Source of the DNA: a virus
Taxonomy: Duplodnaviria; Heunggongvirae; Uroviricota; Caudoviricetes
Virus record (IMG/VR): IMGVR_UViG_2563366965_000005
Reading direction: 5' to 3' (one strand)
DNA: 21,726 bases
A program made the position numbers and the translations under genes. Under the pieces are notes generated by a model. The model searched no databases. It was not told the origin of the DNA and saw nothing but the letters and a program-made list of their open reading frames with translations. Positions 14,573 to 15,452 of this stretch are shown in pieces (position 1 is the stretch's first letter; each line of letters starts with the position of its first letter).

Positions 14573-14593
14573 AAAAACCCGCCGAAGCGGGTT
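14573..14593 (-). terminator. Intrinsic terminator downstream of hokD (end of the relB-relE-hokD operon)
   Basis: Minus-strand reading: AACCCGC-TTCG-GCGGGTT followed by TTTGTTTTTATTTT. Confidence 0.7.
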
Positions 14594-14661
14594 AAGTGCG
14601 GGTGCGTTGAGGATGCCTGCCACATCAGAGGTGGCGAGGGATTTCTCCCCCGCCGGGTCTC

Positions 14662-14817
14662 TTACTCCTCAGGTTCGTAAGCTGTGAAGACAGCGACCTC
14701 CGTCTGGCCGGTTCGGATTCGTACCTCGCAGAGGTCTTTCCTCGTTACCAGTGCCGTCACTATGACGGTTAAACAGATGACGATCAGGGCGATTAACATC
14801 GCCTTTTGCTGCTTCAT
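14662..14817 (-). CDS. hokD: Hok-family type I toxin (HokD/RelF, 51 aa)
   Basis: Not in the ORF track (under 60 aa). Minus-strand ATG at 14815-14817; translation MKQQKAMLIALIVICLTVIVTALVTRKDLCEVRIRTGQTEVAVFTAYEPEE matches HokD/RelF as recalled; about 70 nt downstream of relE. Confidence 0.85.
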   Translation of the reverse strand: MKQQKAMLIALIVICLTVIVTALVTRKDLCEVRIRTGQTEVAVFTAYEPEE

Positions 14818-14888
14818 AGCCTGCTTCTCCTGTCAACGCAAAGCAGAAGTGTCACCTTCGGTGCGAAACAGAGATGTCATGCTTTGGT

Positions 14889-15176
14889 TCAGAGAATGCG
14901 TTTGACCGCCTCGCTATATACTTCCGAGCGTTCTCTTTTCCCAACAGAAATCACGAAAACGACAACTTTCTCGTCTATAACCTGGTATACAAGGCGATAG
15001 CCTGAAGACCGGAGCTTAATCTTGTAACAATCAGGCATACCACGGAGCTTGTTTGCTTCAATCCGGGGTGACTCAAGTACTTCAACCAGCTTCTTTTTCA
15101 ACTGTTCACGTACCGTCGAGCCCAGCTTTCGCCATTCCTTTAGTGCCCGCTCGTCAAAATCCAGAAAATACGCCAT
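14889..15176 (-). CDS. relE: RelE mRNA interferase toxin (95 aa)
   Basis: Translation MAYFLDFDERALKEWRKLGSTVREQLKKKLVEVLESPRIEANKLRGMPDCYKIKLRSSGYRLVYQVIDEKVVVFVISVGKRERSEVYSEAVKRIL matches E. coli RelE as recalled; start overlaps the relB stop (ATGA). Confidence 0.92.
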   Translation of the reverse strand: MAYFLDFDERALKEWRKLGSTVREQLKKKLVEVLESPRIEANKLRGMPDCYKIKLRSSGYRLVYQVIDEKVVVFVISVGKRERSEVYSEAVKRIL

Positions 15177-15415
15177 CAGAGTTCATCCAGCGTCACACGT
15201 ACTGGCTTAGGATTACGAAGCCGTTCTTTCACTATCTCCACAAGTTCAGCATCTTCATCACTCAGGAGTGTCTGTTTGAACGGCAAGCGTTCATTGTCAG
15301 CGATATACTCGAGCATGAGACGAAGCGCTTCAGAAGGAGTTACACCCATTTTTTCAAGCGCGGCGTAAGAACGCGCTTTAAGTTCATCGTCAATACGCAG
15401 GTTAATGCTACCCAT
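15176..15415 (-). CDS. relB: RelB antitoxin (79 aa)
   Basis: Translation MGSINLRIDDELKARSYAALEKMGVTPSEALRLMLEYIADNERLPFKQTLLSDEDAELVEIVKERLRNPKPVRVTLDEL matches RelB as recalled; ATG at 15413-15415. Confidence 0.92.
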   Translation of the reverse strand: MGSINLRIDDELKARSYAALEKMGVTPSEALRLMLEYIADNERLPFKQTLLSDEDAELVEIVKERLRNPKPVRVTLDEL

Positions 15416-15426
15416 GTCTTACACCT

Positions 15427-15452
15427 CTTGTAATTACAAATGTCATTACAAG
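15427..15452 (-). promoter_or_regulatory. relBE operator/promoter region (relO-like repeats TTGTAAT-N-ACA)
   Basis: CTTGTAATTACAAATGTCATTACAAG lies immediately upstream of the relB start and contains two inverted copies of the TTGTAAT(T/G)ACA motif. Confidence 0.65.

Follow-up and report, generated by a model that had tools for sequence, protein, structure and literature searches.

The relB-relE-relF (relBEF) operon of Escherichia coli, whose third gene is also named hokD, has been a subject of study since the 1980s, with published operator, protein structures and transcript. Work on this sequence (PMC3507626 among the sources) describes RelB as neutralising RelE and as being degraded by Lon, and RelE is known from work on the same sequence to cut mRNA at the ribosome's A site. 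RelB dimers bind the four hexads of the operator relO through a ribbon-helix-helix domain, with RelE acting as a co-repressor at a low RelE:RelB ratio and as a de-repressor in excess (conditional cooperativity; PMC2812701). Probes for relB, relE and relF detect the same single full-length mRNA, deletion of the promoter removes induction, and among the fragments left by toxin-induced cleavage the relF portion is the most plentiful (Kasari et al. 2013, PMC3598666). In wild-type cells during growth the relBE promoter shows very low activity, which goes up 11-fold in the absence of RelBE (Goormaghtigh et al. 2018, PMC6016239). Co-transcription and a 71-nt gap were listed by Ramisetty et al. 2016 (PMC5120126), and the origin of the relBE genes in the cryptic prophage Qin is already known, since Ramisetty & Sudhakari 2019 (PMC6379469) stated that a plasmid-acquired relBE integrated there at hokD. 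Here we describe a toxin-antitoxin (TA) locus in a 21,726-nt stretch of viral DNA (IMG/VR record IMGVR_UViG_2563366965_000005; hereafter the window, meaning the stretch at its full length), for which an initial annotation, made from the letters alone, had proposed a relB-relE-hokD operon at positions 14573–15452.

The locus is the relBEF operon of prophage Qin

We are close to certain (probability about 0.95) that this locus is relBEF of the cryptic prophage Qin, an operon read as one transcript from a sigma-70 promoter under relO to the hairpin after hokD. Positions 14200–15950 of the window were 100% identical to E. coli K-12 MG1655 (NC_000913.3), in which the interval 14573–15452 corresponds to 1645030–1645909 and the annotation places relB, relE and hokD within 'cryptic prophage Qin'. 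A second genome, E. coli 1332KP, was 100% identical over the whole window and carried the same annotation; the region there has decayed from a lambdoid prophage and holds genes for tail, lysis, cold-shock, antiterminator and integrase functions as well as insertion sequence (IS) genes, so the label of prophage remnant given by the initial annotation was correct. Every element of the three-gene operon that it described is present on the minus strand, with protein identities matching K-12 relB, relE and hokD/relF, and we found nothing that contradicts the assignment to relBEF and Qin. The locus is ordinary and already known, a prior characterisation on which the initial annotation was silent, and identifying it adds nothing new.

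Database similarity was obtained for all three proteins (Pfam, NCBIfam, PDB and RefSeq). RelB matched Pfam PF04221 (E = 1e-32; 112 bits against a cut-off of 22.4) and the NCBIfam equivalog NF008412 (133 bits against a cut-off of 96), and is 100% identical to chain A of PDB 4FXE. RelE matched the Pfam ParE_toxin/RelE family (E = 2e-13) and TIGR02385 RelE_StbE (54.7 bits against a cut-off of 27.9), and is 100% identical to the wild-type E. coli RelE in PDB 4V7K. HokD matched Pfam HOK_GEF PF01848 (E = 1.2e-23; 82.9 bits against a cut-off of 22) and corresponds to RefSeq WP_000813254.1, the accession also borne by the Sok-linked prophage copies. Substitutions at the catalytic residues of RelE, which would have spoken against an active toxin, are absent: K52, K54, R61, R81 and Y87, which we take to be the active-site residues of the RelE–ribosome structure, are all five intact. 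R81A/R83A substitutions are reported to lower RelE toxicity. The relB stop and relE start codons overlap by one base (UGAUG, 15174–15178), and translational coupling of the two genes has been suggested experimentally.

The operator upstream of relB (TTGTAATGACATTTGTAATTACAA, 15451–15428) agrees base for base with the 24-bp relO of the literature, whose half-sites are TTGTAATGACAT on the left and TTGTAATTACAA on the right (Overgaard et al. 2009, PMC2812701). The motif TTGTAATNACA occurs three times in the window, all at relO, against 0.02 occurrences expected, and the TTGTAAT-N-ACA repeats that had been called relO-like are thus relO itself. Spacing between the -35 (TTGCCC) and -10 (GATACT) boxes is 17 nt, and the promoter went unlisted in our consensus scan because its score of 8/12 lies under the scan threshold. 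Its placement agrees with published data, in which relO spans about -10 to +17 and TA and CT mutations at -10 to -7 abolish promoter activity (Overgaard 2009), as fits a GATACT box ending at -7. The start site inferred at 15444 puts relO at -7 to +17, in line with the published numbering. It would in addition put the +28 end that MazF generates in the transcript on an ACA just before the relB ATG, as published, which provides an independent check.

In this architecture, relO covers the -10 box and the start of the sigma-70 promoter, and the single transcript ends at the hairpin past hokD. The level of hokD mRNA would follow the activity of the relBE promoter, its amount being set by RelB/RelE autoregulation and not by an antisense RNA. 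As for the earlier proposal that hokD, if translated at all, is translated from the relBE transcript, co-transcription from the relBE promoter was shown experimentally for exactly this sequence (PMC3598666). The interval 14573–15452 does contain all three genes; its ends fall short, with 14573 cutting the U-tract of the terminator and 15452 leaving the -35 box, and all but a small part of the -10 box, outside, and the functional unit extends over approximately 14566–15479.

hokD and its 3' end

The 51-codon Hok-family open reading frame (ORF) proposed earlier is present with its frame undisrupted, and a toxicity assay, which had been suggested as a check, is already in the literature: overexpressed HokD is toxic (bioRxiv 10.1101/2025.08.07.668861). 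The Tyr47 codon of hokD, TAC, is part of a TACG, the motif recognised by the tRNA deaminase TadA, and Bar-Yaacov et al. 2017 (PMC5630033) reported A-to-I editing of hokD at the aligned position, by which Tyr becomes Cys. A short local fold around this TACG leaves the UUAC bases unpaired, though not within a tRNA-like loop; a second TACG lies in hokD at 14723, where editing would be synonymous.

The intrinsic terminator predicted after hokD also proved real. Its stem (14593–14576) has seven pairs, five of them G-C, and a loop of 4, followed by TTTGTTTTTA, with the U-tract at 14566–14575. The pattern by itself is unremarkable, because a terminator scan gave one site in the real region against a mean of 1.4 in shuffled sequence; it gains credibility from standing directly behind hokD and from being identical in the unrelated hokD locus of an O157:H7 prophage. 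The 96-nt 3' untranslated region (UTR) folds at -37.4 kcal/mol (z = -2.4). A match to the Rfam model isrK, a Salmonella prophage small RNA, at 14572–14653 on the minus strand and at 2573–2654 of the O157 locus (L002) was rejected, because its 25 bits fall short of the gathering score of 50 and the terminator hairpin accounts for the match. Just past the terminator, upstream of rem, lies a promoter-like site (14524–14553, minus strand; TTGAAG, 18 nt, TAGAAT; 9/12) that is kept in the O157 locus.

hokD lacks the upstream controls of hok/sok systems

Compared with complete loci, hokD has lost all the upstream controls of a hok gene, namely its own promoter, the tac element, the mok frame and the Sok gene, and keeps only a Shine-Dalgarno sequence, the coding sequence, the fbi (fold-back inhibition) element and the 3' hairpin. 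The hok leader is covered by the Rfam sok model RF01794, which gave no match within 14400–15600 at E ≤ 10, in contrast to the five control loci, where it matched directly upstream of hokD in four lambdoid prophages (103.9, 112.7, 106.7 and 103.9 bits) and upstream of hok in an R1-type plasmid locus (88.9 bits). The initial annotation had argued that there was no room for a mok/Sok leader, and these results bear it out. The tac element is absent, the best tac-like match in the window having 4/12 mismatches, and the partnership it forms is visible in a complete control locus (L008), where fbi pairs with the tac sequence GGGTGCTTGAGG at the mRNA 5' end. The mok frame runs into a stop in the spacer, has no ATG and reopens only at a TTG at 14836. 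In alignments, the window differs, with gaps, at the positions of both the R1-type and the prophage-type Sok promoter boxes. A search of 14818–14888 and the hok 5' region for Sok-like elements, as had been advised, therefore yielded none by homology or Rfam, with the promoter scan adding weak evidence. Thus hokD is a Hok-family gene with a toxin and a structured 3' end, in a locus that is not a hok/sok system, since Sok, mok and tac are missing.

A plasmid-type relBE cassette joined to a prophage-type hokD

The distance between relE and hokD, estimated earlier at about 70 nt, is exactly 71 nt, and this spacer is no neutral filler but the 3' stub of a different, plasmid-type hok leader. On plasmids that have no relE there (L007, L013), the stretch immediately upstream of hok is 84–85% identical to positions 14880–14813, and the spacer can also be aligned with the promoter-distal portion of the hok leader of R1. 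Upstream of hokD, the relBE cassette is 98.8–99.3% identical to that of large conjugative plasmids of Enterobacter and Klebsiella (L004–L006), with the RelB and RelE protein accessions of L004 and L006 being those found here. Its left end, 92 nt upstream of relO, is sharp and adjoins four unrelated left flanks. In all, 878 plasmid records contained the cassette, 706 of them conjugative (by genus, Klebsiella 348, Enterobacter 249, Escherichia 76, Citrobacter 72, Salmonella 55), and an exact 23-nt stretch of the spacer occurred in 13 contigs of a collection of species-representative genomes.

On the other side of the junction the sequence is of prophage type. From 14831 to 13000 the window is 85–94% identical overall to lambdoid prophages, rising to 98–99% in the hokD block (~14500–14831), and likeness to complete hok/sok loci breaks off at 14831, which is 14 nt ahead of the hokD ATG. 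The two lineages share 19 nt (AGGAGAAGCAGGCTATGAA, 14831–14813), which is probably the crossover site. The locus probably arose by recombination, in the conserved Shine-Dalgarno/ATG region, between a prophage hok/sok locus and a plasmid-derived relBE cassette that brought a hok-leader stub with it. Some part of the 1021-bp relBE-hokD query was matched by 4723 of 5426 complete E. coli genomes, 1162 of which held at least 80% of it in one contiguous match, while the other matches sampled cover the hokD portion only; a query of relBE and the spacer matched 1248 complete genomes, 1200 of them over at least 80% of its length.

The same cassette stands in front of at least five different hok alleles, on plasmids and in Qin. 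Cassettes are 98.8–100% identical across loci, and the hok coding sequences behind them only 62–85% (48–87% at the protein level). This linkage of relBE to multiple hok alleles seems to be undescribed in the accessible literature. Because a near-identical cassette precedes at least five alleles on conjugative plasmids of several genera as well as in Qin, one could view relBE with its 63–68-nt stub as a portable unit that docks on resident hok genes at the Shine-Dalgarno/ATG region and exchanges Sok control for RelB/RelE control. The linkage would then be selected, with RelB in effect the antitoxin for two toxins, and would not be the accident of one Qin rearrangement. We put this forward tentatively and consider it rather unlikely as it stands.

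Rearrangements of the cassette were also seen. On several plasmids it has been severed from hok exactly at the hok Shine-Dalgarno: L006 (2570–3680) carries an insertion of about 1.1 kb with a duplicated ACAGGAGA, L029 has a similar gap, an IS21-like element follows the cassette in L027, and in L028 a Qin fragment was captured by an Edwardsiella plasmid in association with IS26. Such anecdotal cases could reflect an insertion hot spot or counter-selection of hok. Two further matches are of doubtful quality. Enterobacterial relE-spacer-hok sequence at 99% identity on a 535-bp contig of Streptomyces sp. E11-3 (L020) is most likely contamination, and the match in E. coli ECGI0523 (L023), at only 92% over the cassette, with alignment gaps and with the upstream-ORF and hok frames disrupted, suggests a low-quality assembly.

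Fate of the hokD message

Several points limit the reading in which HokD output is controlled from the relBE promoter. Translation of HokD from the native relBEF mRNA is unproven, having been demonstrated neither here nor in the accessible literature. RNA structure is strong in the 326-nt hokD segment (-118.8 kcal/mol, z = -3.3), whose minimum-free-energy fold pairs the bases just 5' of the hokD Shine-Dalgarno together with the first bases of the Shine-Dalgarno itself, a modelled pairing that could keep hokD silent; HokD output would be expected to depend on the accessibility of its own Shine-Dalgarno within a highly structured RNA. Promoter scanning, in turn, performed poorly on known loci: the consensus scan flagged neither the relBE promoter nor an antisense promoter at the Sok position of the Sok-positive L002, and a relaxed 8/12 scan missed the expected Sok promoter in R1, returning only a weak site inside hokD that is common to Sok-positive loci. 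Consensus scanning was rejected as a test for a Sok promoter, as it fails in Sok-positive controls, and since these were missed too, its silence on an antisense promoter in the window is weak evidence. The argument against Sok is founded on homology and on the Rfam controls.

The most serious alternative, to which we give somewhat less than even odds, is that hokD is a silent relic, co-transcribed but essentially never translated, since hok translation normally requires that mok be translated and the 3' end be processed, controls that the rearrangement would have destroyed, so that the operon amounts to a two-gene relBE with a passenger. The hokD gene has reportedly been inactivated by a major genetic rearrangement. 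The stopped mok frame without an ATG and the strong structure of the hokD RNA segment agree with this, and Bar-Yaacov et al. 2017 (PMC5630033), citing Pedersen & Gerdes 1999, counts hokA, hokC, hokD and hokE as inactive in E. coli. Set against it are an intact coding sequence that specifies the same protein as the Sok-controlled copies, a good AGGAG Shine-Dalgarno retained at 9-nt spacing, and the contiguous presence of at least 80% of the relBE-hokD query in 1162 genomes. The plasmid cassette likewise precedes at least five different intact 52-aa hok genes; insertions and rearrangements exactly at the hok Shine-Dalgarno are what counter-selection against an expressed toxin might give, though these are anecdotal; and the relF fragment is stable, and the most abundant one once the toxin has induced cleavage (PMC3598666). 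A further element of the fold is that GCGUUGA in the spacer (14836–14842) is complementary to UCAACGC (14603–14609) in the orphan fbi and pairs with it in the minimum-free-energy structure. We rejected this pairing as a replacement for tac-fbi, given that the two segments come from different parental lineages and that plasmid-type 3' UTRs have no complement; it is probably fortuitous, and could nonetheless help to keep hokD silent.

If HokD is translated, its translation might instead be coupled to that of relE through the 15-codon upstream ORF, in a mok-like manner: ribosomes would restart 8 nt beyond the relE stop and terminate 1 nt before the Shine-Dalgarno, thereby opening it. The geometry read from the sequence invites such a scheme, and the upstream ORF has the same length in L004 and in the leaders of L007 and L013, which have diverged to 84–85%. 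We regard coupling as improbable, because the ATG of the upstream ORF is AGG in a 91%-diverged relBE-hok operon (L025) whose hok is intact, no Shine-Dalgarno belongs to the upstream ORF itself, chance alone would be expected to keep a frame of 15 codons open through 11 substitutions, and the local fold does not exceed shuffled sequence in stability (z = 0.08). With its ATG lost in L025, the upstream ORF was rejected as a conserved and essential substitute for mok, and it is probably not essential. It is still less credible, and very improbable, that an unrecognised antisense RNA from the spacer or early hokD continues to repress hokD and that the locus thereby stays a type I TA system. The spacer does derive from the part of the hok leader in which Sok is normally encoded, and there is a weak promoter-like site inside hokD (TAAACA, 18 nt, TAACAT; 8/12). 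Copies that contain Sok have that site equally, and it is not their Sok promoter; its occurrence is no more than chance would give, and the standard consensus promoter scan found no plus-strand site in the window; the missing Rfam sok match and the altered Sok promoter boxes described above point the same way. We therefore retain the relBEF operon under RelB/RelE control as the preferred description of the locus.

Feature map and neighbouring genes

The coordinates of all features of the locus are collected in Table 1.

Table 1 Features of the relB-relE-hokD locus and its surroundings, in window coordinates.
Feature	Position	Strand	Description and basis
-35 box TTGCCC	15474–15479	-	read from sequence; placement inferred from published relO numbering
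-10 box GATACT	15451–15456	-	last base overlaps relO; sequence and published mutations
Transcription start G	15444	-	inferred from relO numbering and the MazF +28 end
relO	15428–15451	-	four hexads [A/T]TGT[A/C]A (three TTGTAA, one ATGTCA), two per strand; published half-sites match
relB Shine-Dalgarno GAGGTG	15422–15427	-	6 nt before ATG; read from sequence
relB	15176–15415	-	ribbon-helix-helix antitoxin and repressor, 79 aa, first gene; Pfam, NCBIfam, PDB identity
relE	14889–15176	-	ribosome-dependent mRNA endonuclease toxin, 95 aa; PDB identity, TIGR02385
relE-hokD spacer	14818–14888	-	71 nt; 3' stub of plasmid-type hok leader
15-codon upstream ORF (MTSLFRTEGDTSALR, then stop)	14833–14880	-	starts 8 nt past relE stop, ends 1 nt before hokD Shine-Dalgarno
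relBE cassette	14813–15543	-	731 bp: promoter, relO, relB, relE, spacer, first 5 nt of hok; common to conjugative plasmids
hokD Shine-Dalgarno AGGAG	14827–14831	-	9 nt before ATG; within the 19-nt stretch 14813–14831 common to both lineages
hokD (relF)	14662–14817	-	Hok/Gef-family membrane toxin, 51 aa; Pfam HOK_GEF, RefSeq
Tyr47 codon TAC in TACG motif	14676–14679 (codon 14677–14679)	-	TadA A-to-I site, Tyr to Cys
fbi element CCTCAACGCACCC	14600–14612	-	5' partner tac missing
Terminal stem-loop AACCCGCTTCGGCGGGTT and U-tract	14566–14593	-	intrinsic terminator and hok mRNA 3' hairpin
Prophage-type hokD block	14566–14831	-	Shine-Dalgarno, coding sequence, 3' UTR; homology runs on through rem and ydfU

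Upstream of the operon, the ydfV ORF (15440–15745, plus strand) starts inside relO on the opposite strand and crosses the left boundary of the relBE cassette (~15543), so that its first ~35 codons lie in DNA which, on plasmids, runs on into sequence of no relation. The annotated ORF may be chimeric or spurious, and Pfam searches of YdfV, Rem and the mok-frame ORF returned no families. To the right of flxA, the region 16380–18623 is unlike K-12 and holds a truncated IS1414 transposase gene and then an IS3-family element with an ALIL frameshift pseudoknot (17691–17807), after which come a truncated exonuclease gene, an excisionase and an integrase. Elsewhere in the window, Rfam searches placed an IS009 match (162–360, 221 bits) inside the tail-fibre assembly gene tfaQ (128–703), and two cspA-type thermoregulator leaders (7971–8356 and 10866–11258) upstream of cspI and cspB.

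Implications and comparison with known systems

The practical value of these observations is one of caution over the phenotypes of relBE deletions and reporters. Because hokD has neither a promoter nor an antisense regulator of its own, deleting or reporter-tagging relBE alters hokD expression, and phenotypes assigned to relBE may partly reflect hokD. The initial annotation had also suggested that the module contributes to stress and persistence; that role has been seriously challenged and is contested (Goormaghtigh et al. 2018, PMC6016239). The mosaic itself is a neat example of how TA cassettes without terminators move and capture downstream genes. Were the linkage of relBE to hok selected, it would offer a naturally occurring example in which a protein antitoxin has assumed control of a type I toxin, in a hybrid type II/type I module.

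Among described systems, the K-12 Qin relBEF operon (b1564–b1562) shares all of the operon with the locus in the window, along with the neighbours rem, ydfU and ydfT on one side and ydfV and flxA on the other, and differs only in the wider prophage context, where K-12 has ydfW, ydfX and dicC in place of the IS1414 remnant and IS3-family element found here after flxA. The plasmid relBE-hok modules of Klebsiella, Enterobacter, Citrobacter and Salmonella have the same 731-bp cassette (98.8–99.3%) with hok at the same distance, but their hok allele is of 52 aa, 48–52% identical to HokD, and has an R1-like 3' UTR. The lambdoid nin-region hokD/sok loci, for example in O157:H7, correspond on the opposite side of the junction: hokD, its 3' UTR and the downstream prophage genes are 98–99% identical around hokD and the HokD protein is identical, whereas they possess a leader of about 150–175 nt that is found by the Rfam sok model (104–113 bits), in the place of which the window has the relBE cassette from 14832 upstream.

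The hok/sok (parB) locus of R1 and related IncF plasmids resembles the Qin gene in its Hok/Gef toxin, in the conserved AGGAGAAG-N-AGGC-N-ATG ribosome-binding region and in a structured mRNA with a 3' fbi and terminal hairpin. It differs in that Qin hokD is without its own promoter, tac, a mok frame with a start, and the Sok gene and promoter, and in that the hok mRNA at Qin comes from a protein-regulated operon. A further parallel is mazEFG, likewise a type II module in which promoter/operator, antitoxin and toxin are followed by no terminator and a third gene is read through (Ramisetty et al. 2016, PMC5120126); the third gene there encodes an enzyme, MazG, and not, as here, a second toxin of another TA type.

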